Part shown: positions 30,124-63,201 of the stretch, piece after piece
Layout of the letters: every line of letters starts with the position of its first letter
How positions within the stretch are numbered: position 1 is the first letter of the stretch
Assembly: GCA_964535655.1 (NCBI GenBank)
Contig: CAZHTP010000004.1
Span: 139,108-203,107, forward strand
From: an uncultured Gammaproteobacteria bacterium
GTDB lineage: Bacteria > Patescibacteriota > Microgenomatia > JALYQM01
Length of the DNA: 64,000 nt
Direction: 5' to 3'
Notes under the pieces: generated by a model
Told to the model about the DNA's origin: nothing
What the model saw: the letters and a program-made list of their open reading frames with translations, nothing else
The model's database searches: none
Program-made: the position numbers and the translations under genes

Positions 30124-31302
30124 TTACTTTGCAGTCGTAGTTAATTTCTGGATTACTGTGTTACCGATTTTTTCACCCATTTTAAATCCTTCTTCATTGT
30201 CGATAGGAAAGTGAATACCTGCCCAGAGGCGGGAATTGCGGGCTTCGTTGGCCATAGCAAACCACTCATTTTTGTTTTCTGGAAAATAATGAGAAAGAAT
30301 TGTCGCGGCGGCGGCTGAAAGCGTTGAATGTCCTGACGTATAACTAGGAAAATTGGGGTTTTGAATAACGGTTTTAATACTTGCATCGCGCATATCTGGG
30401 CGGTCAGTTTGATACGTATATTTGGTATTCCAGCAGGAGATCATGGCATCCTCGAGTGTTGTTGCAAGCACCGCATTTACTTCAATGTTTTTATCAAAAG
30501 GTATATCATGAGCATTCATGTATTCGTTTGCGATGGTAAGCCATATACCTGCCGGTGTTACCGTATTTGATCCACCTGCCCAATATTTTATTTTCGCTAA
30601 TCTTTCTGGGGTATTTTCTTTAACAGCGGTTTTGACTGCTTCAATCTGATTTTTATCCTGTTGAGATCCAAGTTTAGGTGGTGGTGGAGGAAGATATTCA
30701 TTTGGTGAGCCGATATACCAGGTTTTCCAAGCGCCAGCTTCGGGAGTAATAACATCCAGATGGTACCATTTATCGGCCATTGGTTTCATTGTTTTGACAT
30801 ACTCAGCGGTTTGTTTATCATTTTGGGCAATTCGGTTAGTAATTTTTTTAGTAACGATATCCGCAATGATTTTATCTGTTGAAAATGATGTATCGGGAGC
30901 TGTGCATTCACTTGGAAAGAATACACAGTTTACCTGATGTGTTGTTTTGGTAATTGCATCTACTTCACGATCCGCATTTTTTGCTACTTTAAATGCCTCA
31001 CTTTGGGCTAATAACAAATTAGCATAGTATTTTGCTGCAAGTGTAGGTTGGGTATTTTGAAACTTAATAATATCGAACATATGGGAGTGTGTACTATTCA
31101 AGCTATCAAGGGAAAAGGTACTAAATTCTTTTTCTGATTCATTAATACGGTTCATTTCATCTGCTGAATACGTAAAATATGTGTTATATTTTGCTTCTTG
31201 GGGAGTGACAGTATTTTTGCTGTGCATAGCAAAAATTATCACTGCTGCAGTTGTGATAAGCAGGACAGAGGTGGCAGAAATTGTTACATGTTTGGCTTTC
31301 AT
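30124..31302 (-). CDS. secreted PAP2-superfamily phosphatase / vanadium-haloperoxidase-like protein
   Basis: All three PAP2 motifs are present: K-x6-RP (KYTYQTDRPD), PSGH (PSYTSGHS) and SR-x5-H-x3-D (SRLWAGIHFPID). N-terminal signal anchor. Confidence 0.8.
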   Translation of the reverse strand: MKAKHVTISATSVLLITTAAVIIFAMHSKNTVTPQEAKYNTYFTYSADEMNRINESEKEFSTFSLDSLNSTHSHMFDIIKFQNTQPTLAAKYYANLLLAQSEAFKVAKNADREVDAITKTTHQVNCVFFPSECTAPDTSFSTDKIIADIVTKKITNRIAQNDKQTAEYVKTMKPMADKWYHLDVITPEAGAWKTWYIGSPNEYLPPPPPKLGSQQDKNQIEAVKTAVKENTPERLAKIKYWAGGSNTVTPAGIWLTIANEYMNAHDIPFDKNIEVNAVLATTLEDAMISCWNTKYTYQTDRPDMRDASIKTVIQNPNFPSYTSGHSTLSAAAATILSHYFPENKNEWFAMANEARNSRLWAGIHFPIDNEEGFKMGEKIGNTVIQKLTTTAK

Positions 31303-31305
31303 AGT

Positions 31306-32988
31306 CTAAATACCGTTTGTTAGTGTGCTAAAGGGCAGCACATTATTTTCGTATACACCGATTGGTCGCCCTTTGGTAACGACTGGTAGATAGGAGGGAT
31401 CGCGGTAGTGTGCATAGGCTAATTCCCACCATGAATGAACGGCTGTTCCCGCTCCAGAGGCCCACGGCCAGGCAGAAGGATTAAGAACATATTTAGACAT
31501 ATAGTCGATTGATACTTTCATTCGTCCATAACTCCATAAATCCAATCCCCGGCGTTCCATTACTTTTGCGGCGACAACTCTAAAGCCAATTGCGCCGGAA
31601 GAATAGGTAATACCTCCGGTGCCCCGGCGGGTTTCTTCAGGGATATGTCCATCGGAGGCGACTAAATCGACCTGTGATTTAAATTTTGCAATTCCTGCGT
31701 TGAGGCTTCCTGAATCACCGATATAATCTGATACAACAATTTTCATTTGTAATCCGGCATCACCCCAGTTGTTGTTACGAGTTGAAGCTGAAGGGAGTAT
31801 AACGGTGCGTAACCAGTTTTTAAACACTGCGTCGTCTGCTACAGAGAAGGCCCCGGACGGTTTAATGTGATCAGCGGCAAAAACAAAGCTTGGTGTCATA
31901 CGGCTCGTAATCAATGCCGTTTGGCAGCCACCTCCGTCAGGGCAGGCATTGGTTAGAGATTTTGTTGTATTTACCCAAGCCATAATATATTCGCGTGCTT
32001 TAGTGGCGTATTTAATATCACCGGTTAAGCCATAGGCAATTCCTAGAACATTAACGGCATTAGCATCATCAACAAATGGACCGGTTGTGCCAGGTATATT
32101 TAAGGGATTTTGCGGATTAGGATTGCGGCCAAGTGCGTTATTAGCATAACTTAACGCTGCTCCTGCTTCAGGCCTAGACTTGCGTTGTGCCAGTTCAGCA
32201 TTGGTGACGACGTATCCTTTTTGTTCGCCTGGTGGCCCTGTTGGAACTGGAGTTCCGTTTGGTGGTTGAGTAGGAGTGATGGATTGGGTTGGGTTTGCAG
32301 TACTTGAAGGAGAACCGGTAGCTTTTAACGCGACAATATACATTGAATAGGCTGCATGTTGTGCGTCTGCTGCTGGCCCTAATTGTGCTGTTCCAGCGTT
32401 AATGTTTTTTGAGTAAATATCATAGAGCCCAATTAATCCTTGTTCATTTTTCCGTTTAAAGAATTGATTTATTTGGGAAAAATCGTCGTTGGTTTGTTTA
32501 CTAAATCCACTCGTTATCCAACTCGGTGGGGAAAGATTGGGGATTTTTCGGGGCAAAATATACAATGTAGCGGCTTTGTTCGTTGTGATCGACCAGGAAA
32601 GATTGGTGTCATCTTTTATTTCGGAATTAGGTGTTGTTATATATGTTGCTTCAGTAAAGGTGTCTGGGAGAAAGAATAGAAAACGAGTATCTGTTGAATA
32701 AATTGGACTATTTGCTGCGACACAGGCTTTACCGAAACTTTTTCCGGAAGGAGAGTTGACGGTAATAAAAGAGGTATCACATGCGGCAAGTGAGCGTTCC
32801 ACCTTTCTACTGGCGCCAAAAAAGCTCATGGCAATTTTTTGTATTTGTTCGATAGAAATAAAGGTGATAAACAATCCTACTAACATGACGCAAAGTGCGC
32901 CAATGGCAATAAAGATGAATGTTGGTATTACGCTTTCCTCCTCATTTTTCATAGCTTCAGCATAATTGTAATTAGCCTTGTGTGTCAA
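31306..32988 (-). CDS. secreted protein: shared N-terminal module + Pro/Thr linker + alginate-lyase-like (alpha/alpha-toroid) C-terminal domain
   Basis: Signal anchor; the N-module is paralogous to ORFs 45377 and 60101; PT-rich linker; C-terminal NNNWGDAGL resembles the AlgL NNHSYW region. Confidence 0.5.
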   Translation of the reverse strand: MTHKANYNYAEAMKNEEESVIPTFIFIAIGALCVMLVGLFITFISIEQIQKIAMSFFGASRKVERSLAACDTSFITVNSPSGKSFGKACVAANSPIYSTDTRFLFFLPDTFTEATYITTPNSEIKDDTNLSWSITTNKAATLYILPRKIPNLSPPSWITSGFSKQTNDDFSQINQFFKRKNEQGLIGLYDIYSKNINAGTAQLGPAADAQHAAYSMYIVALKATGSPSSTANPTQSITPTQPPNGTPVPTGPPGEQKGYVVTNAELAQRKSRPEAGAALSYANNALGRNPNPQNPLNIPGTTGPFVDDANAVNVLGIAYGLTGDIKYATKAREYIMAWVNTTKSLTNACPDGGGCQTALITSRMTPSFVFAADHIKPSGAFSVADDAVFKNWLRTVILPSASTRNNNWGDAGLQMKIVVSDYIGDSGSLNAGIAKFKSQVDLVASDGHIPEETRRGTGGITYSSGAIGFRVVAAKVMERRGLDLWSYGRMKVSIDYMSKYVLNPSAWPWASGAGTAVHSWWELAYAHYRDPSYLPVVTKGRPIGVYENNVLPFSTLTNGI

Positions 32989-32994
32989 TGATAG

Positions 32995-33648
32995 TTGCTA
33001 TATACTGCGATTGATAATTCTTTTATGGCAGCACCAATCACGCATATTGCTCTTGCTGACTTGATTTTCGATACCTATTTTGAAGGTACAAGCAAGCGAC
33101 TCTTTACGATCGGTACGCTTTTCCCGAGTATTGAATATCTGCGTGTTTTATCTCGAGATCGTTCGCATTTTCATACGGTTCATTTAAAAGAACTTATTGG
33201 CATTAACGCATTTACTGCAGGATTTAAATTTCATTCGCTTGTTGATCAAGTGCGAGATGAATATTTAGAATCCCAAAAAGCGTACTATTCTTTTCCTAAG
33301 ACAAATTTATCTGTTCGAGCATTGAAATTTTTGGAAGATGAGATTTTGTATGATGAGGTAACTAACTGGGGAGAGTATTGCTCGTATTTTGGATCGATAA
33401 CTGAAGATGAAAAGCGCTTCGGTATTGAAGGCGATGAAATTATGCATTGGCATAAGGCGGTAGAGCAGTATTGCTGTAAAAAACCGACAGACGAAGTGCG
33501 CATAGATTTTGTTCAATGGTTAGGGTTTTCGCAAGAAGTTGCAGAGGAAACAAATGATGCCTTAAAAGAGATGCGCAATGACCCTGCGGTGGTGGAGATG
33601 ATTAAGGGATTGTATAAGAATTTTAAGTATTTGATAGATAGGGAATGA
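32995..33648 (+). CDS. hypothetical protein
   Basis: No confident motif (HIALADL at the N-terminus); first gene of the co-directional block leading into the DUF2726/DUF2075 genes. Confidence 0.4.
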   Translation: MLYTAIDNSFMAAPITHIALADLIFDTYFEGTSKRLFTIGTLFPSIEYLRVLSRDRSHFHTVHLKELIGINAFTAGFKFHSLVDQVRDEYLESQKAYYSFPKTNLSVRALKFLEDEILYDEVTNWGEYCSYFGSITEDEKRFGIEGDEIMHWHKAVEQYCCKKPTDEVRIDFVQWLGFSQEVAEETNDALKEMRNDPAVVEMIKGLYKNFKYLIDRE

Positions 33649-33649
33649 T

Positions 33650-33901
33650 ATGAGTGATGTAATATTATCTGAAAAAGCGAAGAGTTTGAAGTTGGGGAGA
33701 TATAGGCATTATAAGGATAAGTATTATCAAGTGATTGGGGTGGCGGTGCATAGTGAGATACAGGAAGAATTAGTGGTGTATTCGCCGGGATATGATACTC
33801 CGGTGAAATTATGGGTGCGCCCGCTGGAGATGTTTATGGGTGAGGTGGAAGTGGATGGGGTAGTGAGGAAGAGGTTTGAACTCGTGGAGGAGGAAGCCTA
33901 A
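33650..33901 (+). CDS. DUF1653-like small protein
   Basis: GRYRHYKDKYYQVIGVAVHSEIQEELVVY...LWVRPLEMF pattern recalled as DUF1653. Confidence 0.5.
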   Translation: MSDVILSEKAKSLKLGRYRHYKDKYYQVIGVAVHSEIQEELVVYSPGYDTPVKLWVRPLEMFMGEVEVDGVVRKRFELVEEEA

Positions 33902-34385
33902 TATGTATTCGTTACAGTATTTAGCGATTGCTGTCATCATAGTTTTATTTGTTGGAGTATTTCTATTTGTTACTCTTAAAAAATCTCCTCGAAAATTCAA
34001 GGCTAAAGGGCCATATTTACTGAGCATGGGAGAAACGCGTTTTTTTAATGTACTCGTCCAAGCGATTAGTAGTACTGAATATGTTTGTCCAAAAGTCAGA
34101 ATTGCGGATTTGGTGGAAGTTGATTTGCCAAAAGATGATACAGAATATTGGTCAAATTTTAATAAAATAAGTCAAAAACATGTGGACTTTGTAATTGTAA
34201 ACAGATTGGATTTTGCGCCAAAATTAATTGTTGAGCTTGATGGTGGATCACATAATAATCCAGATAGATTAGAGAGAGATGAGTTTGTGGACTCAGTGTT
34301 AAAATCAGCGAAGATACCGATTGTGCATATTGCAGTGCAGGGGAATTATTCTGTTGAGCAGTTGAAGAGTGAGTTGAAAATATAG
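33876..34385 (+). CDS. DUF2726-like PD-(D/E)xK-fold protein with N-terminal TM helix
   Basis: TM helix, then FFNVL...HVDFVIVN...KLIVELDGGSH...RDEFVDSVLKSAKIPIVHI, matching the DUF2726 / restriction-endonuclease-like core (D..ExD/K). Confidence 0.6.
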   Translation: MNSWRRKPNMYSLQYLAIAVIIVLFVGVFLFVTLKKSPRKFKAKGPYLLSMGETRFFNVLVQAISSTEYVCPKVRIADLVEVDLPKDDTEYWSNFNKISQKHVDFVIVNRLDFAPKLIVELDGGSHNNPDRLERDEFVDSVLKSAKIPIVHIAVQGNYSVEQLKSELKI

Positions 34386-34419
34386 TTATTGCAATTGTTG
34401 TTTAAAAGTATATATTTGT

Positions 34420-36291
34420 TTGATACTTATGATCCTTTATGAAGGAACGGCAAAGGAATATAGTGAAGCCGTTGATACTAATAAACTAATTGAACAGCTA
34501 GAACTCGCATTTAAACAAAAATTAGGACGAAAACTTCCTCCGAATGAAGTGGGAGCTTATAATAATTCGCTCTCTTTTATGGAACGTGTTATTAGAAGAT
34601 CTGGCGTTTCCGATGATTGTGCTATTCTGATCGAATATATTATCCCCCTTACTTCAAATAGAATTGATTTCCTCATAGCCGGAGAAGATGATTTTGGAAA
34701 TAAGAATTTTGTTATAGTTGAATTAAAGCAGTGGCAAAAAGCAAGTCCAACTGAAAGTGATGCTGTCGTAAGGACTTTCTTAAATGGTGGAGATCGTGAA
34801 ACCACTCATCCTAGTTATCAAGCAAATTCATACAAATTGTTTCTATCGGATTTTAATGAAGAAATTTCAAGTGGAAAGATAAAAGCTTCAGCTTGTGCTT
34901 ATTTACATAACTATCATAAGCATTTTCCAGAGCCTTTGGAAAATTATCCTTATGATGAAATTATCAAAGAAGCACCGATCTACTTTAGTGAGGATCAAGA
35001 AAAATTAGAGAAGTTCATTGCGAAGAATGTAAAATACGGAAAAGGAAAAGAAATCCTCTATGCTATTGAACATGGAGAAATTAAACCTACGAAGAAATTA
35101 ATAGATTATGTCTCAGATTTATTTATAGGGAATAATAAATTTATTTTTCTGGATAATCAAAAAGTAGCTTTTGAAAAGGCTCGTTCAGCTGTCAAAGATT
35201 CTAATAAAAAGACGGTGGTCATTGTTCAGGGCGGTCCTGGAACAGGGAAATCTGTTATCTCTGTAAACTTGTTGGGGCAGTTTCTTAAGGATAAATTAAA
35301 TACTTTATTCGTTGCTCCGAATGCTTCATTCAGAAATGTTCTTATTAAGACATTAGCTCGAGAATTTCCCTCTAATCGTTTGCAGAATTTATTTAAAGGT
35401 TCGAGTAGTTTTGTCGATACAGACCCGAATACATATGATGTATTAATTATTGACGAAGCTCATAGGCTAAAAGACCGTCGTGCTTATATGTACACAGGTA
35501 AGAATCAAGTGGAGGATGTAATAAAGGCGGCTCGAACAACTATTTTTTTCATAGATGATGATCAAGTTATTCGGCCCGAGGATATAGGATCAGTTAAGGA
35601 AATCAATAGAATAGCTCATGAATATGAAGCTGAAGTTTATACAATCGAACTAGAATCTCAATTTCGTTGTGCAGGAGCGGATGGTTATATTAACTGGCTT
35701 AATGATGTCTGGCAGTTGAAAATGACTGCGAATTATGATGGTTGGGAGGAAAAAGATTTCGAGTTTAGAATTTTTGATGATCCTAACGAGATGAGAAAAG
35801 CAATTAAGTCAAAACATGAACAAAATTACGATGCTCGAATTCTTGCCGGTTATGCTTGGTCTTGGACCTCTGGCGAAAAGGGTAATGCAGATGCTCAAAT
35901 TGAAGATGTTCAAATCCCAGAATTTGAATTTAGTATGCCTTGGAATTCTCGGAAAGTAGGAACTACATGGTCCGTAGATCAAGAAGGTATTGATCAAGTG
36001 GGTTGCATTCATACTTCCCAGGGTATTGATTTTGATTATGTGGGGGTAATAGTTGGTAAAGATATAACGTTTAATCAAAATTTACTCGAATTTAGCACTG
36101 AGTATAATGCCTATAAAGATTTTCAAGGTAAGCTGGGTTTGAAAGAGAAGCCCGAAGAACTTAATCTGTTAGTAAGACGCATTTATAAAATATTAATGTC
36201 TAGGCCGAGATATGGTTGTTATGTCTACTTTTGTGATCCGGCATTGAAGGAATATTTTCAGAGAAGATTAACGGGAAGTATCAGAAGATAG
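34420..36291 (+). CDS. DUF2075-like nuclease-helicase: N-terminal PD-(D/E)xK-like domain + SF1-type P-loop ATPase/helicase core
   Basis: N-terminus ILIEY..RIDFLIAGED..FVIVELKQW (E/D/ExK); Walker A VQGGPGTGKSVIS; Walker B/DEAH LIIDEAHRL; C-terminal helicase motif TSQGIDFDYVGVIV. Confidence 0.7.
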   Translation: MILMILYEGTAKEYSEAVDTNKLIEQLELAFKQKLGRKLPPNEVGAYNNSLSFMERVIRRSGVSDDCAILIEYIIPLTSNRIDFLIAGEDDFGNKNFVIVELKQWQKASPTESDAVVRTFLNGGDRETTHPSYQANSYKLFLSDFNEEISSGKIKASACAYLHNYHKHFPEPLENYPYDEIIKEAPIYFSEDQEKLEKFIAKNVKYGKGKEILYAIEHGEIKPTKKLIDYVSDLFIGNNKFIFLDNQKVAFEKARSAVKDSNKKTVVIVQGGPGTGKSVISVNLLGQFLKDKLNTLFVAPNASFRNVLIKTLAREFPSNRLQNLFKGSSSFVDTDPNTYDVLIIDEAHRLKDRRAYMYTGKNQVEDVIKAARTTIFFIDDDQVIRPEDIGSVKEINRIAHEYEAEVYTIELESQFRCAGADGYINWLNDVWQLKMTANYDGWEEKDFEFRIFDDPNEMRKAIKSKHEQNYDARILAGYAWSWTSGEKGNADAQIEDVQIPEFEFSMPWNSRKVGTTWSVDQEGIDQVGCIHTSQGIDFDYVGVIVGKDITFNQNLLEFSTEYNAYKDFQGKLGLKEKPEELNLLVRRIYKILMSRPRYGCYVYFCDPALKEYFQRRLTGSIRR

Positions 36292-45376: not shown

Positions 45377-46882
45377 ATGACTAAGCCAGTAAAAGAACTA
45401 TTTGTTGTTTCACTCGTGACGCTATTGGGGTTGAGTGTTTTCGGGGTAGTGGGATCTAAGACTTTAAATGTGGCTTTTCTTCAAACATATCCTCGGGTAG
45501 AAGCCGCTTGCGATACCAGTTTTTTTACTGTAAATGCGCCCAAAGGATGCATTACGGCTAATGCGGTAATGTACAGTGATGACTCGAGGTTTGTATTCTT
45601 TAACCCTGCTCCCCCATACGTTAATTTGCCGTATATACAATTAGGAAATGTCGGCGTAAAAGATGCGCCAAACTTTGATTGGGGACTTGCTTTACAGAAG
45701 TCGGCAACGGTATATATCTTTACACGGCATATTCCAGGGATTGGAGTTCCTTCATGGATTTCTCAAACGTATACGCGTAAGACAACAGATGATCTCTCTA
45801 CTATTAATCAATATTTATTACGAAAAAATGATCAAGGCTTGATAGGTTTATACGATATTTGGTCAAAGAATTATGTGGCAGGAACTAATGTTCAGTTCCA
45901 TGCGGCAGGAGATGCACAGAATCCAGCGTATTCGATGTACCTTGTGGCTTTGGCTGGGATTGGTTCTTCTGTGAGCTCAACTCCTTCTCCAACTTCGACA
46001 CCATTGCCTCCTTCAACGCCGATAGCCGGGGGTAGTTGTTCTGGCGCGTCTGTTTCGCCTGGACAATCTTTGAGCGCAGCAATTAGTAGCTTAGGCTCAG
46101 GGCAAACTCTGTGTGTCCATGGGGGAGTTTATGGAAAACTCAGTGTTACGATTCCCTCGGGGGCAACGGTTAAAGCGTATCCTGGAGAAAAGCCTTGGGT
46201 AGAAGGTATCTCTTCTATTACTGGATCTAGTGGATCGATATTGGATGGAATTAACTTTAGATGGGGAAGCGATTCTAATGGTCCACATATGGTAAGTATG
46301 AAAGGGAGCGGATGGACATATATTAATGGCGAAGTAGGTCCATCCCATGGATATGCAAATATGTTGATATCTGGTGGTGCGTCTAATTGGCGAATAGCAA
46401 ACTGTTATATGCATGATAATACTGATGGTGGGCACACCGCAGTTCAGGATCATTTAATTTATGCGAGCGAAACAAGTAATGGCATTATTGAACGATGTAT
46501 ATTTGCCAATAGCCCGCGTGGTCGGGGCGTAAAAATGGGACCGCCAAGTGGTTCGGGTGGACCTAAAAATATTACTGTTCGTTATAATACGTTCTTTAAT
46601 AACCTCGGTCCATCCAATATGCAAGTGTCTGGGGATACGTCTGGTGTTAAAATGTACCGAAATATCCTGGTTAAATCTGGTGCTTCGACTAACATTACTG
46701 ATGCAACAAATGGAGGATCGAGTAATAGTGCGTATGAGAATGTAGGTGATGGTTCAGGAGGGGTTGCTGCTTCTTCTTTGAACAATGGTGGAGGGCCAAA
46801 TATTAAACTGGATCCACAACTTGGATCAGATTTCCGTCCAGGTAATCCAGCTGCAGCTGCGTACGGAAGATATGCTCCGTAA
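45377..46882 (+). CDS. secreted protein: shared N-terminal module + Pro/Ser/Thr linker + right-handed parallel beta-helix (pectate-lyase-like) domain
   Basis: Signal anchor; N-module paralogous to 31306 and 60101; C-terminal Gly/Asn-rich repeats (NxxDGGH, GxxNG). Confidence 0.5.
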   Translation: MTKPVKELFVVSLVTLLGLSVFGVVGSKTLNVAFLQTYPRVEAACDTSFFTVNAPKGCITANAVMYSDDSRFVFFNPAPPYVNLPYIQLGNVGVKDAPNFDWGLALQKSATVYIFTRHIPGIGVPSWISQTYTRKTTDDLSTINQYLLRKNDQGLIGLYDIWSKNYVAGTNVQFHAAGDAQNPAYSMYLVALAGIGSSVSSTPSPTSTPLPPSTPIAGGSCSGASVSPGQSLSAAISSLGSGQTLCVHGGVYGKLSVTIPSGATVKAYPGEKPWVEGISSITGSSGSILDGINFRWGSDSNGPHMVSMKGSGWTYINGEVGPSHGYANMLISGGASNWRIANCYMHDNTDGGHTAVQDHLIYASETSNGIIERCIFANSPRGRGVKMGPPSGSGGPKNITVRYNTFFNNLGPSNMQVSGDTSGVKMYRNILVKSGASTNITDATNGGSSNSAYENVGDGSGGVAASSLNNGGGPNIKLDPQLGSDFRPGNPAAAAYGRYAP

Positions 46883-46988: not shown

Positions 46989-49334
46989 TTATAAATTGGA
47001 CCTTCGCTGCATATCCACTTCGATGGTTTGGCGTTCTTGACCAAACTTAAGACGAGATAATTCCTTAATCATCTCTGCAAGTTCTGGGCTCATCAAGGCT
47101 TTTTCGACAGAAATGTCTTTTGTAGTATCAAGAGAAAACGCTGGTGTTGGTTCACCATTTACTAATGTTTTTACGTAGGCGTTAAAGCGTTCAACATTGA
47201 TTAAATCCTGCTCGTTGAATGTTGGTTGGAATTCATGCTGTAGGTAATTAGCATCGGTTACGCCTACACGGAAAGAAACAATTGTACCAACGTTACCAAA
47301 GATCGCATTTTTAATATTTTCTTCCATTTGGCCAATAAATTGGTTGGCTACCACGAGGTTAAGTTTGAATTTACGAGCTTCGGAAAGAATGTCTGCAAAA
47401 GTAGACGTCGCAAAGTTTTGAAACTCGTCAACATATAGATAAAAGTCTGGAAAGGAAATATTTTTAGCGATGGCATCAGAGCGAGACATAGCCGCCACTA
47501 GAATGCGGGGTACGAGTACGAGTCCTAAAAAGTTAGAGTTTTCTTCACCAATTTCACCCTTGGCTAGATTAACCAGTAATATTTTCTTTTCATCCATGAT
47601 TTTGCGGAAGTCGAAAGCGGATTTATTTTGTCCAATAATGTTACGCATCATTTTGTTGGTTACGAATCGACCGAACTTAGAAACGATATAGTCGAGCACT
47701 TCGGATTTGTGGAAGTCTGACGTTTGGGCGATTTGGTCCGTCCAATAGCGGCGAACCATTGGATCTTCAACGTGTGGCAGAAGTTCCTGCATATATTTAG
47801 AATCGGTAAGTACGCGAACAACTTCAATAAATGTATTCCCCGGAACCGACATAACGGTAAGCATCGCGTTACGAATGGCGTGCTCGAATCGGGGACCGAT
47901 GATACCTGTTTGGTGCGGGTCGTATAGTTTGTACATCAATCCAATAATGGAGTTAACCATGAAATGTTTCTGCTCTTCGGTTTCGGCTTCAAGTAAATTA
48001 AGACCAAGAGGGAAATCCAAATCCGAAGGATTGAAGTAAATGACGTCTTCAGCTCGTTCGGGTGGAATGAGTTGCAAGATATCTGTTATAGCGGTTCCGT
48101 GAGGATCCATAAAACAAAGGCCTTTGCCATCGTTAATATCCTGCATTGCCATCTGTTTTAAAAATTCAGATTTACCCGTGCCGGTTTTACCAATAATATA
48201 CATGTGTCGACGACGATCGTCGTCGCCGATAAAAATTGGACGAGTAGTACCACGAAAGACGCTTTGTCCCAAATACAATCCTTTGGGGGGGATGTTGGCT
48301 GGTGCTGCGGCCCGTTTTGCATTGAGCCAGGTAATGTATGGTGTTTCGATCGCTTTATTTGGGAAGTGATAAATGGATGCTAACTCTTCCGAATTTAAAA
48401 TGCTTGATCGAACAAAGATTGGCGTATACCGATAAATGAAATTGGTAAGAAATACTTTTTTTGACCAGATCTTTTTTGTCTTGAACCCATTATATGCACC
48501 ATTAAACTGTTCAAACCCTGCTCGAATGTTGTTCAAATGTGTTTTTGCCATTTCCTTAGTTTCTGCACAAACAACAATGCGGATAGCTGTTTCAAATCCT
48601 GGCTTTGCAACTTTTTGTTCAACGGCTTCAAGTTGTTTGGCGTCGGCTGGCTTGGGTTTATCTCCAGATGATTCTTGAGAACGCTGACCCTTTACAAAAC
48701 CATACCCTTTTTTTGACCAGGCGCCACCTGCAGGCGAGATAATCATTTGAATTACCGCACCTTCGCCCTCGCGCATTTTAGCCATGGCAGATGTTAATGC
48801 AGAGAGTGGATCGGTAGCTAAATCTTTGTATGTTTTTATGGGTTGATAATTGGCTGATTTGAGTCGTAAGGAGACGAATTGTACTTTCCCAGATTTAGTG
48901 AAGATGTTGTATTCATTTACGATCTTAATTTCGGCGCCTGAATATGCGGCATGAATTTGCTTTTCAACTAAATCCTGAAGATCTTCCGGGACGTTAATAT
49001 AGAATTTGATAGATTCTGGCTGGGCAACAATTTCAAAACTTATTGACGGTTGATGCTTGAGCATGGGAATGAGTGCGGAACGATAAATTCCAGTGAATGA
49101 GCTAAACATTTGTTCGGCAGCATCAATTTTAACTTCGTTGTCGCGCGGAATCGTAATCTGTAACAGTCGTGACTTTAACGATTCTTCTTCCCGCTCTTTA
49201 TATACAGAGAATCGTATGATTAACGCTCCTGCTATGAGAAGTAGTCCACCTACAACTAAAATGGTTAGAATAATTGTAAGGACAATTAAACCTATAAACG
49301 GTAAGGAACTCGATAAATCTGATGTAAGGAACAT
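46989..49334 (-). CDS. membrane-anchored P-loop NTPase of the TraG/TraD/VirD4 (type IV coupling protein)-like family
   Basis: N-terminal TM helices; Walker A IIGKTGTGKSEF; Walker B LYVDEFQNF; LVVANQ; a TraG-D_C-like C-terminal region; 781 aa. Confidence 0.5.
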   Translation of the reverse strand: MFLTSDLSSSLPFIGLIVLTIILTILVVGGLLLIAGALIIRFSVYKEREEESLKSRLLQITIPRDNEVKIDAAEQMFSSFTGIYRSALIPMLKHQPSISFEIVAQPESIKFYINVPEDLQDLVEKQIHAAYSGAEIKIVNEYNIFTKSGKVQFVSLRLKSANYQPIKTYKDLATDPLSALTSAMAKMREGEGAVIQMIISPAGGAWSKKGYGFVKGQRSQESSGDKPKPADAKQLEAVEQKVAKPGFETAIRIVVCAETKEMAKTHLNNIRAGFEQFNGAYNGFKTKKIWSKKVFLTNFIYRYTPIFVRSSILNSEELASIYHFPNKAIETPYITWLNAKRAAAPANIPPKGLYLGQSVFRGTTRPIFIGDDDRRRHMYIIGKTGTGKSEFLKQMAMQDINDGKGLCFMDPHGTAITDILQLIPPERAEDVIYFNPSDLDFPLGLNLLEAETEEQKHFMVNSIIGLMYKLYDPHQTGIIGPRFEHAIRNAMLTVMSVPGNTFIEVVRVLTDSKYMQELLPHVEDPMVRRYWTDQIAQTSDFHKSEVLDYIVSKFGRFVTNKMMRNIIGQNKSAFDFRKIMDEKKILLVNLAKGEIGEENSNFLGLVLVPRILVAAMSRSDAIAKNISFPDFYLYVDEFQNFATSTFADILSEARKFKLNLVVANQFIGQMEENIKNAIFGNVGTIVSFRVGVTDANYLQHEFQPTFNEQDLINVERFNAYVKTLVNGEPTPAFSLDTTKDISVEKALMSPELAEMIKELSRLKFGQERQTIEVDMQRRSNL

Positions 49335-59544: not shown

Positions 59545-60099
59545 TTAAAAAATAAAGTGAAGAAGGTCGTGAAAAGAGGCAGAACTAAAGATATCAAATA
59601 TTTCGGTAAAGTTTACAAGATTTGGAATTAGTAGTGGTTTTGAAATAATATCACTAATTGCGTAACTGCCAGAGACATTCCGGATAAAGAAGAACATCAG
59701 TAGTACGGCATAGAAAAAATACGCTGTGGCAAAATAGAATAGTTTACGTTGTTTCTTTTTATATATCTTTTTATTTAAATAATAGGCCGTTGGAATAGGA
59801 AGTAAGGGGATTGCTGCAAAGAAAAGCATTAGGACTAGAACAATAGGGTTATAGAGTATTGGTATTGATTCAAGTATGCTTACATAGCCGCGTAGTTTAA
59901 AATAAAGATGTGATAGCGCAGAAGTTAATAAGAATGAATATACTGCGATGACAAAAAAATGAGTTAGATATTTTTTATCTGGTCTTTTTTCGTAAAATAA
60001 GTAAGCAGTTACAATGAGCGATTGAGGAATTATATAGAAAAATGGGATTACGATTCCAGCATGATATATCCCTAAAATAATGTAGCCGACAATACGCAT
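59545..60099 (-). CDS. hypothetical polytopic membrane protein (last gene of the 61096->59545 operon)
   Basis: 4-5 TM helices; abuts the stop of ORF 60101..61096. Confidence 0.35.
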   Translation of the reverse strand: MRIVGYIILGIYHAGIVIPFFYIIPQSLIVTAYLFYEKRPDKKYLTHFFVIAVYSFLLTSALSHLYFKLRGYVSILESIPILYNPIVLVLMLFFAAIPLLPIPTAYYLNKKIYKKKQRKLFYFATAYFFYAVLLMFFFIRNVSGSYAISDIISKPLLIPNLVNFTEIFDIFSSASFHDLLHFIF

Positions 60100-60100
60100 A

Positions 60101-61096
60101 TTAGAACCCTGGAACTTGCAGTGTTTTTAATTTATTCATGGCGCTTGATTTAGTGATGTGCACTTTGTCTCCGTGACCGGATACACCCATGGTTTTTGCC
60201 CCTTTGTTGAAAACTTCAGTCATATCTTTACCGCATGCCCATGTCAAATCATCGTCGCCACCTGGATGTTGCTTTACGACTTTAGTTCCAATAGTTACCG
60301 AATAGTAATCGGATAAATTATATAGATGCCATCCGTCGGTTGCATGATGATAAATAGTCCAGCAGTCAGTAGGTGGATGCACATGTTGCTGGGCAATAGC
60401 TACAAGATTAGCAGGGGGTGTGCTTCCACTTGGGCCAGGAGTAGCTGATGTTTTTGGTGTCGTTGTGGGGCTTCCAACAGCTCCAGTGGGAACTAATGCT
60501 ACAACATACATTGAATAGGCAGGATGTTGTGCGTCAGATGCTCCTGATAAGGTAACTGTTCCTGCAGGGACTGTCCTAGTGAAAATGTCGTATAAACCGA
60601 TTAATCCTTGGTCATTTTTTCTCTTCATAAATTGAGTAATTTGAGATAAGTCGTCGTTTGTCTGGCGCGTGTAATTACTGGTTATCCATGTCGGCGCACT
60701 AAATCCGGGAATATGTCGCGGCATAATATATATGTTGGCTGCAGTGTTGAGCGTTATTGACCATGACAATGAAGCACTATCTTTAATATCTGAATTTGAT
60801 GTTTGTACAAAGGCAGCATTATTTACTGCTGTGGACGGTTGAAAAAAGAAAAATCTGGAATCTGTTGAATAGATCTTGGTGTTATCTAAAAGACAACCTT
60901 TTGTAAATGTTAAGCCACTCGGGTTGTTAATAGTGAAAAACGATGAATTGCAGGCAGCTTGGGCCGCTGATTTATCTATTTGATTAAGTGATACATTTTG
61001 ATTACGTACTACGTTGATAGCACTGTAAAATAATAATGTAACCAGTACTGTAACAATTATTATGGCTAAATTCTGTTTTAACAATTTTGTTTGCAT
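60101..61096 (-). CDS. membrane-anchored protein: shared N-terminal module + Pro/Thr linker + cytochrome-b5-like heme-binding domain
   Basis: Signal anchor; N-module paralogous to 31306 and 45377; C-terminal DCW...LYNLSDY...HPGG...CGKDMTEVF...SGHG fits the cyt-b5 heme-ligand pattern. Confidence 0.55.
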   Translation of the reverse strand: MQTKLLKQNLAIIIVTVLVTLLFYSAINVVRNQNVSLNQIDKSAAQAACNSSFFTINNPSGLTFTKGCLLDNTKIYSTDSRFFFFQPSTAVNNAAFVQTSNSDIKDSASLSWSITLNTAANIYIMPRHIPGFSAPTWITSNYTRQTNDDLSQITQFMKRKNDQGLIGLYDIFTRTVPAGTVTLSGASDAQHPAYSMYVVALVPTGAVGSPTTTPKTSATPGPSGSTPPANLVAIAQQHVHPPTDCWTIYHHATDGWHLYNLSDYYSVTIGTKVVKQHPGGDDDLTWACGKDMTEVFNKGAKTMGVSGHGDKVHITKSSAMNKLKTLQVPGF

Positions 61097-61264
61097 ATCT
61101 TATTTACTATACTATTATTAAACTAATTGTATGAAAATTTCAAAGGTTATTACAACTACCTTAGTGGTAATTTTTGCTCTTGTCTTACTTGCACTCACCC
61201 TTGGCATTATTTATTTGGCTGCGAGTCGGTTGTGGCCGCTGTTTCAATAGACTATTATTACTCT

Positions 61265-62554
61265 ATGTATAAAGCATTGGGATATACGATACTTGTATTG
61301 TGTTGTGCAAATACGATTGCCTTTTGGTTATTAGGAAAAGAGGACTTGTCGACTATTATTTCGCAACCATTACTTGCGACCAGCCAGGCACTTTCGCTAC
61401 TGGGTTTAATTTTAACCGCAATTGCGCTATTATTTTCCACTCGTGTAGCAATTCTTGAAGATATCTTTGGTGGACTTGACTCTGATTATTTTTTGCATCA
61501 TATTCTGGGTGGAGTTGCGTTCTTATGTCTTATCAATCATCCACTTTTTCTGGTTGTACACTATCTTCCGTTTTATAAACTGGCACTTTTCTATGTAATT
61601 CCAGGAAGCGATTTTTCGTATAATCTTGGGCTTGCTGCGCTTTACACTATGATATTTTCTTTCGTGTTTATCGGATTTGTAAAAATATCATATAGTGCAT
61701 GGCTGTGGTCGCATCGATTACTCGTTGTGAGTTTTCTGCTTGGCGCGCTCCATACAATGTATGTGACAAGCGATGTCTCACATAATATTTTATTGCGTGT
61801 ATGGACGTATGTTTTTATTGTAATTGGAATGTTAAGCTCGATATATATCCTTTTCCTGTATAAAAAATTTGGTCCACGTTATAAATATATTGTTGAACTT
61901 GTGACACGAACGAGTGATGTTTTTAGTATTTACTTACGGCCTGTTGACCGTGCCATGCAGTTTATACCGGGGCAATTTATTTATGTGCGTTTTGATAACC
62001 AAAAACTTGGTAATGAACTCCATCCTTTTTCGTTCTCATCCGCACCTTGGGAAAACCAGATCCGGGTAAGTGCAAAAATCCTGGGAGATTATACAAAGAA
62101 GTTATCCGAGCTACAGGTTGGGGATACAGCTCATATATTTGGGCCGTATGGCCGGTTTGGTACATCCTTTATGGAAGGTGAACGGGATTTGCTATTTATT
62201 GGCGGAGGTATTGGAATTACGCCTTTTTTGAGTATGCTACGCTTTGAATCTGTATACCCTAAAAATAGAAAAATTTATGTTATTTATTCATATAAAAACC
62301 ATAGCGAGGCAGTTTTTTATGACGAAATTATGACATTGATGTCGTATAATAATACAGTCCAGTTTATTCCATGGGCATCGCACGAACGAGGTAGATTGAC
62401 TGGAGATCAGGTCTGGAAATCTGTAGGAAGCCTTCAAGGATTAACCATTTTGATGTGTGGACCAAGTGGTATGATGATGAATTTGCAAAAGCAATTTATT
62501 CGTAATGGAGTTGATGAGCAGAATATTATTTTTGAAGATTTTAATGTTTTGTAA
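61265..62554 (+). CDS. ferric-reductase/NOX-like transmembrane flavocytochrome (bis-heme TM domain + FAD-binding + NAD(P)H-binding)
   Basis: His pairs 13 residues apart in two helices (HHILGGVAFLCLINH; HRLLVVSFLLGALH); HPFS FAD motif; GGGIGITPF NAD motif; CGP near the C-terminus. The track ORF starts at 61127; a later ATG at 61265 is more plausible. Confidence 0.65.
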   Translation: MYKALGYTILVLCCANTIAFWLLGKEDLSTIISQPLLATSQALSLLGLILTAIALLFSTRVAILEDIFGGLDSDYFLHHILGGVAFLCLINHPLFLVVHYLPFYKLALFYVIPGSDFSYNLGLAALYTMIFSFVFIGFVKISYSAWLWSHRLLVVSFLLGALHTMYVTSDVSHNILLRVWTYVFIVIGMLSSIYILFLYKKFGPRYKYIVELVTRTSDVFSIYLRPVDRAMQFIPGQFIYVRFDNQKLGNELHPFSFSSAPWENQIRVSAKILGDYTKKLSELQVGDTAHIFGPYGRFGTSFMEGERDLLFIGGGIGITPFLSMLRFESVYPKNRKIYVIYSYKNHSEAVFYDEIMTLMSYNNTVQFIPWASHERGRLTGDQVWKSVGSLQGLTILMCGPSGMMMNLQKQFIRNGVDEQNIIFEDFNVL

Positions 62555-62556
62555 TT

Positions 62557-63201
62557 ATGAAATCGTACCTTCTTATTCTCATTCGTATTGGAATGATTAA
62601 TTTTTTGTGTATATTGCTTGTGATGGTGTATATATCACGTCGTCCTGTTGTAGCTAATTCGACAAAAAAGCCAATAGTAGCCAATGGTCCTGGTGCGACA
62701 AGAGTTGTTACTTTGCCGGAAACGACCCCATCACCGAGTGCCACTGATGTTCCCTATGTGATTGAAACAGCAACTCCAACTGCATCTCCGTCACCAACAC
62801 CTACTCGGACTCCTGTTCCTACCACTTCTGCTTCGGCAACAGCTCGAGCTTCTTCTACTAGTGCTGCTACCGCATCGCCGACACCTCAACCCACTCAGCA
62901 GCCAACAGCTCAGCCGACGCAAGCACCTACGGCTTCGCCTACTCCACAACCTACCGCTCCTCCTAACCCCTTACTGGTAAAAGTAGCACCGCATAATACG
63001 GAAACTGATTGTTGGATGGTAATTGATTCGCATATTTATAATGTTTCCGACTATATGAAGTTACACCCAGGCGGTAAGGATCCTCTGGTCATTTATTGTG
63101 GTAAAGATGGGACAACTGGTTATCACACTAAAGATAAAAACCCACCTGTTGATCATACTCCCACCTCTAATTCGATGCTTGAATTATTCCTTGTGGAGTG
63201 A
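62557..63201 (+). CDS. membrane-anchored Pro/Thr/Ala-rich protein with C-terminal cytochrome-b5-like heme-binding domain
   Basis: TM helix; 70-aa PT linker; DCWMVIDSHIYNVSDY..HPGG..CGKDGTTGYH. Starts 3 nt after the preceding stop. Confidence 0.55.
   Translation: MKSYLLILIRIGMINFLCILLVMVYISRRPVVANSTKKPIVANGPGATRVVTLPETTPSPSATDVPYVIETATPTASPSPTPTRTPVPTTSASATARASSTSAATASPTPQPTQQPTAQPTQAPTASPTPQPTAPPNPLLVKVAPHNTETDCWMVIDSHIYNVSDYMKLHPGGKDPLVIYCGKDGTTGYHTKDKNPPVDHTPTSNSMLELFLVE

Follow-up and report, generated by a model that had tools for sequence, protein, structure and literature searches.

What is the segment that three otherwise unrelated exported proteins of one uncultured bacterium have in common, and what might it do for the cell? 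The question is raised by a 64,000-nucleotide stretch of contig CAZHTP010000004.1 (GCA_964535655.1), hereafter the window, in which the open reading frames (ORFs) 31306..32988 on the reverse strand, 45377..46882 on the forward strand and 60101..61096 on the reverse strand encode proteins of 560, 501 and 331 aa that we call W1, W2 and W3. An earlier reading of the DNA (the original prediction) had proposed that all three begin with a hydrophobic helix and one homologous module and then diverge behind a linker, and the three ORFs exist where it placed them. We find that the module has relatives elsewhere: it represents a diverged branch, expanded in one lineage, of a superfamily that has no name but does have a solved crystal structure.

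Three copies of one module

The three proteins share a layout of one hydrophobic leader, the module, a linker rich in Pro, Thr and Ser (P/T/S) and then an unrelated effector domain. As had been claimed, each has a single N-terminal hydrophobic segment (mean Kyte–Doolittle value 2.4–2.8) and each has the linker, at 32–38 aa. With each module as a tblastn query, the window contains exactly three copies, which are 51–60% identical to one another over 153–158 aa (E 1e-47 to 1e-63; E 1e-54 to 1e-71 for module against module by BLASTP); no further copy was found across its whole length, every other match having E > 0.6. These copies agree within a few codons with the blocks originally delimited at 32316–32811, 45494–45977 and 60484–60964. 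Their three-way alignment has 65 invariant columns, which include the motifs first quoted for the module (AAC..SF.T.N, Y(S/D)xDxRF.FF.P, PxWI, RKN(D/E)QGLIGLYDI and AYSMY.VAL), and the worry that the similarity might be merely one of low complexity is answered by the ordinary composition of the module. The three modules are old paralogues rather than recent copies, because their DNA aligns only over the most conserved 150–175 nt, at 67–73% identity; recent duplication or gene conversion is ruled out by such an identity over just the most conserved third.

Of 58 family members, 54 have both of the conserved cysteines for which a disulfide had been suggested. Two others have neither and two apparently have one, one of the latter merely having a long insertion between the pair. 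Because the two residues come and go together, both a disulfide, which the sequences suggest would join Cys5 and Cys24 in module numbering, and an extracytoplasmic location gain support. A lipobox at the first conserved cysteine is ruled out: 12–25 residues separate this cysteine from the hydrophobic helix, no Leu-like residue occupies position -3 and C-terminal copies of the module have the cysteine too.

An unannotated family expanded in one lineage

In keeping with the suggestion that the module was possibly undescribed, neither Pfam-A nor NCBIfam returned a match to the module even at E ≤ 10, whether the query was a whole protein, a profile of three or 19 copies or each of 19 modules singly, and searches of PDB sequences gave no meaningful match. 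The search beyond the window that had been proposed did recover a close family in genomes of the Candidate Phyla Radiation (CPR). Searched exhaustively with HMMER, 1.84 billion cluster representatives yielded 74 matches, ~52 of them close family clusters (E < 1e-12); every one of these with an assignable origin belongs to a single deep Patescibacteria lineage. When 185,579 species-representative genomes were scanned for a sequence pattern of the module, 16 loci emerged, eight each in CAYOFQ01 and JALYQM01 ('MDV bin63') and none elsewhere; P0002 and second copies at loci L006 and L007 were missed by the pattern or lie nearby. At least 9–10 module genes are present per genome of ~1.5 Mb. The original label of lineage-specific therefore holds for this subfamily, which belongs to one Patescibacteria lineage, but not for the superfamily, which is widespread and includes the solved protein 6hpd.

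We treat the source of the window, from its sequence, as a deep-branching, Microgenomates-like Patescibacteria (CPR) lineage. The window LepA shares 89% identity with the one in CAYOFQ010000001.1 (GCA_964403585.1), a single-contig metagenome-assembled genome of 1.57 Mb; the next identities are 80%, 69% and ~59%, and the first named relatives, at ~59%, are Candidatus Daviesbacteria, beyond which come other CPR groups. CAYOFQ010000001.1, which holds loci L001–L005, L010, L013, L015 and L019, is labeled 'uncultured Gammaproteobacteria', a label that looks wrong given these LepA relatives. RNase Y, MurJ, FemAB and GlmS are also encoded in the window.

Between orthologues from the window genome and CAYOFQ01, the pair with LepA at 89%, modules are 65–78% identical and effectors 70–89%, compared with 33–48% (with indels) for linkers and 15–25% for leaders. 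The module is conserved to a degree comparable with the effectors and far above linkers and leaders, and purifying selection therefore acts on it as one folded unit.

Fold and superfamily

Structure prediction, one of the checks first proposed, gave a confident result. The AlphaFold2 model of the W3 module, computed from an eight-sequence alignment, is an all-beta sandwich of ~11 strands (pLDDT 86.3, pTM 0.83); as modeled, the module is a genuine, autonomously folding and mobile unit. The top Foldseek match in the PDB is the glycoside hydrolase (GH) family GH2 beta-glucuronidase 6hpd (E 4e-6, probability 1.00, TMq 0.66, 163 columns), which we take to be an ulvan-utilization enzyme of Formosa agariphila, and we infer that the matched region is residues 861–988. 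Second comes a putative accessory beta-sandwich domain of the GH138 alpha-galacturonidase BP0997 (6hzf/6hze; E 4e-5 to 1e-4, TMq 0.52–0.58, ~157 columns), a glycosidase that targets uronic acids; its identity to the module is only 10–11%, and it has no sequence-profile link to either family profile. Weaker matches were to GH87 and to the galactose-binding-like folds of carbohydrate-binding modules (CBMs), including CBM32, CBM47 and the galactose-oxidase N-terminal domain. For CBM32, CBM47 and galactose-binding-like entries the Foldseek probability was 0.15 or lower and TM was below 0.25, and no confident Foldseek superposition on the galactose-binding-domain-like fold (CBM32, CBM47, F5/8 type C) was obtained.

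Sequence profiles lead to 6hpd as well. The distant matches of the exhaustive search (whole-library E 4e-10 to 1e-3) are large, multi-domain surface proteins from Bacteroidota, Nitrospirota and others, in which a domain of ~140 aa is repeated two to six times with the consensus ...YTDRSYTF..VP..L.GA.YIQTANDDK...VYVAYD.R...P.WL...LY.K.F.AG.VTLGGN...SMY.V.V. By hhalign, 19 CPR modules align with 12 of these distant domains at 99.1% probability (E 4.7e-19, 125 columns), and the distant-domain profile has a sole PDB match, 6hpd_A residues 861–988, at E 5.8e-21; compared directly with that segment, the CPR profile gives a weak hhalign match in the same register (E 0.002, probability 14%). No Pfam or NCBIfam model describes the distant repeat, whose carriers are named 'hypothetical protein'. 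Its neighbors are GH28, Sde182, malectin, PKD, Ig, Big_7, fn3 and InlB-B-repeat domains, and its carriers bear type IX secretion system (T9SS) or PEP-CTERM sorting signals, contexts that are extracellular or surface-bound and concerned with glycan processing or adhesion.

Residues invariant in the 19 CPR modules (Y32, R37, N57, K61, W93 and S151-M152-Y153) align with Y32, D34/R35, T54/N56/D58, P89/W91 and SMY of the distant family, and superfamily-wide conservation of such polar and aromatic residues would be the pattern expected of a conserved site rather than of a hydrophobic core alone. Profile homology, the fold of a solved member and the signature positions (Y-x-D-R; T-x-N-x-D/K-K; P-x-W; SMY in the final strand) were all found, and we consider the module very probably an accessory module of the 6hpd-type superfamily. 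The comparison with known families that the original prediction called for thus has a divided outcome: no Pfam or NCBIfam family matched, whereas an unnamed superfamily with one solved member was found.

The C-terminal domain of 6hpd (~861–988), together with the unnamed repeat, is homologous to the CPR module and the closest known object to it. Shared are the Y-x-D-R, T-x-N-x-x-K, P-x-W and SMY positions, attachment to extracellular enzymes or surface proteins and the lack of a Pfam or NCBIfam model. The CPR branch differs in its Cys pair, which flanks the first hairpin and has no counterpart in the 12 distant domains of the alignment, and in an insert of ~10 residues that carries the family's most invariant motif, RKN(D/E)QGLIG. 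It differs, too, in being single-copy within a protein and never tandem, in belonging to one lineage in which it is massively paralogous and in having heme-binding and phosphatase partners. Literature searches for descriptions of the matched 6hpd and GH138 domains, for a CPR-specific module and for Cyt-b5 fusions of this kind found nothing relevant.

A sandwich of cohesin size on many different enzymes could instead be a protein–protein docking or oligomerization module, cohesin- or S-layer-like, that joins exoproteins to a scaffold or to one another. The sole near-threshold match among PDB sequences, to a domain of the S-layer protein Sap (E 0.04, 54 residues), points the same way, but we judged it insignificant, and it covers only a third of the module. 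Given also that neither the window nor the loci showed a scaffold candidate bearing complementary repeats, and that the structural neighbors are glycosidase accessory domains, we rate docking as improbable.

A mobile module with diverse partners

In about three-quarters of relatives the module directly follows the leader at the N terminus; in about one-quarter it is at the extreme C terminus, with a P/T/S linker before it and the stop 2–4 residues after it. There is also a stand-alone form, P0002, of 209 aa and identical in two assemblies. The notion of an intrinsically N-terminal module has to be dropped in view of the C-terminal and stand-alone forms, and what persists of the proposed layout is a mobile module tied by P/T/S linkers, 25–40 residues long, to unrelated domains. 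Because about three-quarters of modules are N-terminal, the module is not a C-terminal sorting domain of the T9SS CTD, PEP-CTERM or LPXTG kind; no Por_Secre_tail or PEP-CTERM match lies within it, and in the distant relatives such signals are additional to the domain.

The leaders are of an unusual type common to the exported proteins of this lineage, with a hydrophobic helix, a polar spacer of 12–25 residues and a small-x-small motif (AQA, AQT, AQS or QAA). That motif stands directly before the first Cys of the module in N-terminal-type proteins and is also found after the leader of C-terminal-type ones; possibly the leader is processed there, although the distance from the membrane helix would be unusually long.

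Could the module be a chance or compositional artifact, or an export or folding pro-domain with no role in the mature protein? The sole point for a pro-domain is the frequent position right after the leader, and nothing speaks for chance, which is countered by E-values of 1e-54 or better, the 65 invariant columns and the confident model. A pro-domain is hard to square with modules that are extreme C-terminal or alone, and orthologue conservation as strong as that of the catalytic domains tells against artifact and pro-domain alike. We hold this explanation to be extremely improbable.

To see what the module is attached to, Pfam families were counted in 45 cluster representatives. Cyt-b5 is the most frequent partner (seven), and phytase and metallophosphoesterase occur in three each, six together; beta-helices follow with three and PL7 (polysaccharide lyase family 7) alginate lyases with two, and a PF05426 lyase, GH5, GH31, GH39, GH88 and DUF4832/DUF4874 are found once each. 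About 14 of the 45 have a recognizable carbohydrate-active or beta-helix Pfam family, and about half have no recognizable partner. Phytases and metallophosphoesterases are about as common as any single class of carbohydrate-active enzyme.

What the module may bind

On the reading that we favor, the module would be a non-catalytic accessory beta-sandwich of ~155 residues, exported in a Sec-dependent manner via the single N-terminal hydrophobic helix and folded outside the cytoplasm, with the one disulfide as a brace. The flexible P/T/S tether of 25–40 residues would join it to a 'business' domain, whether a polysaccharide lyase or hydrolase, a phytase or phosphoesterase or a cytochrome-b5-like heme domain. 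One branch, in a deep Patescibacteria lineage, would have gained the disulfide-flanked first hairpin and the ~10-residue insert RKN[DE]QGLIG and later multiplied to at least 9–10 genes per ~1.5-Mb genome. There the module would serve as a common binding handle for one shared target, probably a glycan of a cell envelope or extracellular matrix, with the cell's own wall, a host surface and exopolysaccharide (EPS) as candidates, and binding would concentrate the scavenging exoproteins of the lineage at the target surface.

On balance, we think it likely that the module acts in binding or retention, and we would assign it to any specific ligand class only with considerable doubt. Homology, fold class, modularity, export signals, purifying selection and expansion are observed, and from these we infer binding and the nature of the ligand. 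Several points weigh against this reading. The literature searched showed no demonstrated ligand for any member of the superfamily and no description of the 6hpd C-terminal domain. Nearly half of the recognizable partners, namely Cyt-b5 and the phosphatases, are not carbohydrate-active. The module is near neutral (median pI 7.9) and offers no electrostatic hint of an anionic ligand, an idea that we set aside because neither net charge nor pI supports it. Finally, if the leader were an uncleaved anchor, it would put N-terminal-type modules at the membrane and make a separate means of retention redundant.

The original prediction had called the module CBM-like or surface-targeting, and the fold class and linker architecture are indeed those of accessory binding modules. 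Beta-sandwich or galactose-binding-like CBMs (CBM6/35, CBM32, CBM47 and the malectin family CBM57) resemble it as non-catalytic, all-beta sandwiches of ~150 aa that stand at either terminus, have P/T-rich linkers and occur on polysaccharide lyases and glycosidases. However, no Pfam CBM model matched any of 19 modules at E ≤ 10 or the full-length proteins, and many partners are not carbohydrate-active, so that a strict CBM fits poorly (Cyt-b5 in seven of 45 representatives, phosphatases in six). A general localization or retention device fits better, because heme-binding and phosphatase partners are as common as carbohydrate-active ones.

One version of the CBM hypothesis would have the module bind uronic-acid polysaccharides (alginate, pectin, ulvan or glucuronan-like EPS) and raise the concentration of enzyme on the polymer. 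Partners that act on uronate polymers include alginate lyases of the PF05426 (PL5-like) and PL7 families, PL9-like beta-helices and GH88; the solved homologue forms part of a beta-glucuronidase, the structural neighbor GH138 targets rhamnogalacturonan II of pectin and one distant relative carries GH28. Yet a polysaccharide substrate is lacking for the fusions to Cyt-b5, phytase and metallophosphoesterase and for the stand-alone form, the module lacks a net basic charge and no existing CBM family represented in Pfam matches it. Because nearly half of the recognizable partners are not carbohydrate-active, we consider such a classical substrate-targeting CBM unlikely.

Anchoring to the producer's own envelope is a special case of the binding-handle reading in which the ligand is specified: the module would bind the wall polymer or S-layer of the cell itself, as an analog of SLH, CWB2, LysM and SH3b, and would hold leader-cleaved exoproteins on the producer. 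The partner set does resemble that of a general 'secretome tag' rather than one matched to substrates, the module works at either terminus and many copies are found in a small wall-building genome with MurJ, FemAB and GlmS. The small-x-small motif (AQA, AQT or QAA) fits removal of the leader, which would leave the module as the only possible retention device, but at 12–25 residues past the hydrophobic helix this putative cleavage motif is far for signal peptidase I. The likeness to SLH, CWB2, LysM and SH3b is proposed as a functional analogy, that of one module on many unrelated exoproteins at either terminus; sequence and fold are unrelated, and wall anchors usually come in two or three tandem copies, whereas the module is always single. 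Pfam searches of the module and of whole proteins gave no match to SLH, LysM, SH3b, CWB or PG_binding families, and distant relatives are found in Gram-negative Bacteroidota and among PEP-CTERM proteins, where the envelopes are quite different. We regard self-anchoring as possible though not probable.

Features of the window and their neighborhoods

The coordinates of the leaders, modules, linkers and effectors are collected in Table 1.

Table 1. Parts of the three module-bearing proteins in the window
Feature	Coordinates	Strand	Details
W1 leader and spacer	32794..32988	-	helix at residues 23–41 counted from the TTG start, hydrophobicity 2.77; spacer end ...RSLA abuts the module
W1 module, copy 1	32323..32793	-	W1 residues 66–222; beta-sandwich with Cys pair; from tblastn, BLASTP, alignments and hidden Markov model envelope
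W1 Pro/Thr/Ser-rich linker	32224..32322	-	33 aa, ATGSPSSTANPTQSITPTQPPNGTPVPTGPPGE
W1 effector, alginate-lyase-like	31306..32223	-	including stop; PF05426, E 4e-23, residues 295–507
W2 leader and spacer	45377..45496	+	hydrophobic helix at residues 8–26; spacer end ...RVEA
W2 module, copy 2	45497..45955	+	W2 residues 41–193; first hairpin 6–7 aa shorter, Cys pair kept
W2 Pro/Thr/Ser-rich linker	45956..46051	+	32 aa
W2 effector, probable right-handed beta-helix (pectate-lyase-like)	46052..46882	+	including stop
W3 leader and spacer	60965..61096	-	hydrophobic helix at residues 12–30; spacer end ...SAAQA
W3 module, copy 3	60491..60964	-	W3 residues 45–202; copy used for the AlphaFold2 model
W3 Pro/Thr/Ser-rich linker	60377..60490	-	38 aa
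W3 effector, cytochrome-b5-like heme/steroid-binding domain	60101..60376	-	including stop; PF00173, E 4.4e-5, HPGG motif

The true start of W1 is probably the ATG at 32952 (M13, 'MKNEEES'; MKNEEESVIPTF...), which we prefer because the leader then has the same form as in other family members; the mechanical TTG start at 32988 likely lies too far upstream, 12 codons before that ATG. Of the effector assignments first made, the alginate-lyase-like domain of W1 (Alginate_lyase) and the cyt-b5-like domain of W3 are confirmed by Pfam, the W3 match being barely above the gathering score. The W1 effector is 88% identical to that of the cluster representative P0137, and the W3 effector shares 39–42% identity with the Cyt-b5 portions of five further cluster representatives that carry the module and 33% with that of a sixth.

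The parallel beta-helix proposed for W2 is only probable. The window protein itself has no Pfam match in this region, but there is a faint precomputed match to Pel9A-like_beta_helix (PF22842), and the orthologue L005, whose effector is 89% identical, matches Beta_helix at E 0.0025. A single-sequence AlphaFold model of the domain is all-beta and, at pLDDT 54, was too poor to use in a fold search and was set aside. P0126 in the 50% representative library is identical in sequence to W2, yet W2 was missed by a homologue search that used the module and the distant domain as short queries; its 5 and 60 matches, none longer than about 270 aa, badly understate both families. Two W2 orthologues, one in JALYQM01 (L016, JALYQM010000014.1) and the other in a JGI metagenome (P0001/P0003), are split by a frameshift inside or just after the module, so that a short ORF encodes the module and a separate ORF the beta-helix; they are either pseudogenes or assembly errors.

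The W3 locus (59545..63201) comprises the genes 59545..60099(-), 60101..61096(-), 61127..62554(+) and 62557..63201(+). A gene for a multi-pass membrane protein follows W3 by 1 base on the same strand and is probably co-transcribed with it. Divergent to W3 are a NOX/FRE-type ferric-reductase gene (Ferric_reduct, FAD_binding_8 and NAD_binding_1) and a second exported Cyt-b5 protein that has a Pro/Thr linker and no module. The arrangement of W3, membrane protein and reductase is kept in CAYOFQ01, where the reductase is 70% identical, and judged from its gene content the locus is a possible unit for extracellular electron transfer or iron/heme acquisition in a CPR bacterium.

Downstream of W1, after a gap of 3 bases and on the same strand, 30124..31302(-) encodes an exported phosphatase similar to PAP2 and vanadium haloperoxidases, which has a hydrophobic leader and no module; along with the phytase and metallophosphoesterase fusions, it suggests that extracellular phosphate may be scavenged. 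On the other side, beyond W1 and ORF 32995..33648, the region 33876..36291(+) encodes a DUF2726 protein (E 1e-28) and then a Schlafen-group-3-like helicase (E 2e-92), which may be a defense-type gene pair. Adjoining W2 is 46989..49334(-), which encodes a VirD4/TrwB/HerA-like ATPase of 781 aa with an N-terminal membrane helix; its counterparts beside the W2 orthologues L005 and L016 are 91–93% identical and thus far more conserved than W2.

Implications

This work defines an unannotated domain family whose structural prototype is 6hpd residues 861–988. It would make possible the annotation of ~50 CPR protein clusters and of many 'hypothetical' large surface proteins in Bacteroidota, Nitrospirota and other groups. 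The family is unannotated and its lineage-wide deployment is unusual, whereas its mechanism would be unsurprising unless the module proves to be a device for surface display or host adhesion.

We can offer that idea only tentatively: the module would be the universal attachment device of an ultra-small CPR lineage, an unrecognized surface-display or host-adhesion system by which all of the scavenging exoproteins are fastened to a specific glycan of a host or matrix or else to the envelope of the cell itself. The lineage-specific RKN(D/E)QGLIG loop and the disulfide-braced sandwich would do the fastening, and among the proteins so retained would be uronate lyases, phosphatases and those extracellular cytochrome-b5 proteins that work with a NOX-like ferric reductase. 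If true, this would be a new functional counterpart of SLH or cohesin–dockerin display and would offer a way to identify the host or ligand of these uncultured bacteria.

For the biology of the organism, a module that tags at least 9–10 exported proteins per ~1.5-Mb genome is a marker of its extracellular toolkit. The list of partners, with enzymes for alginate, pectate and glucuronyl substrates, phytases and Cyt-b5 near a ferric-reductase-type protein, gives rise to hypotheses on what these cells scavenge. And if the module does bind a host or matrix glycan, a labeled version could serve as a probe for the partner or niche of an uncultured bacterium of the episymbiont type.

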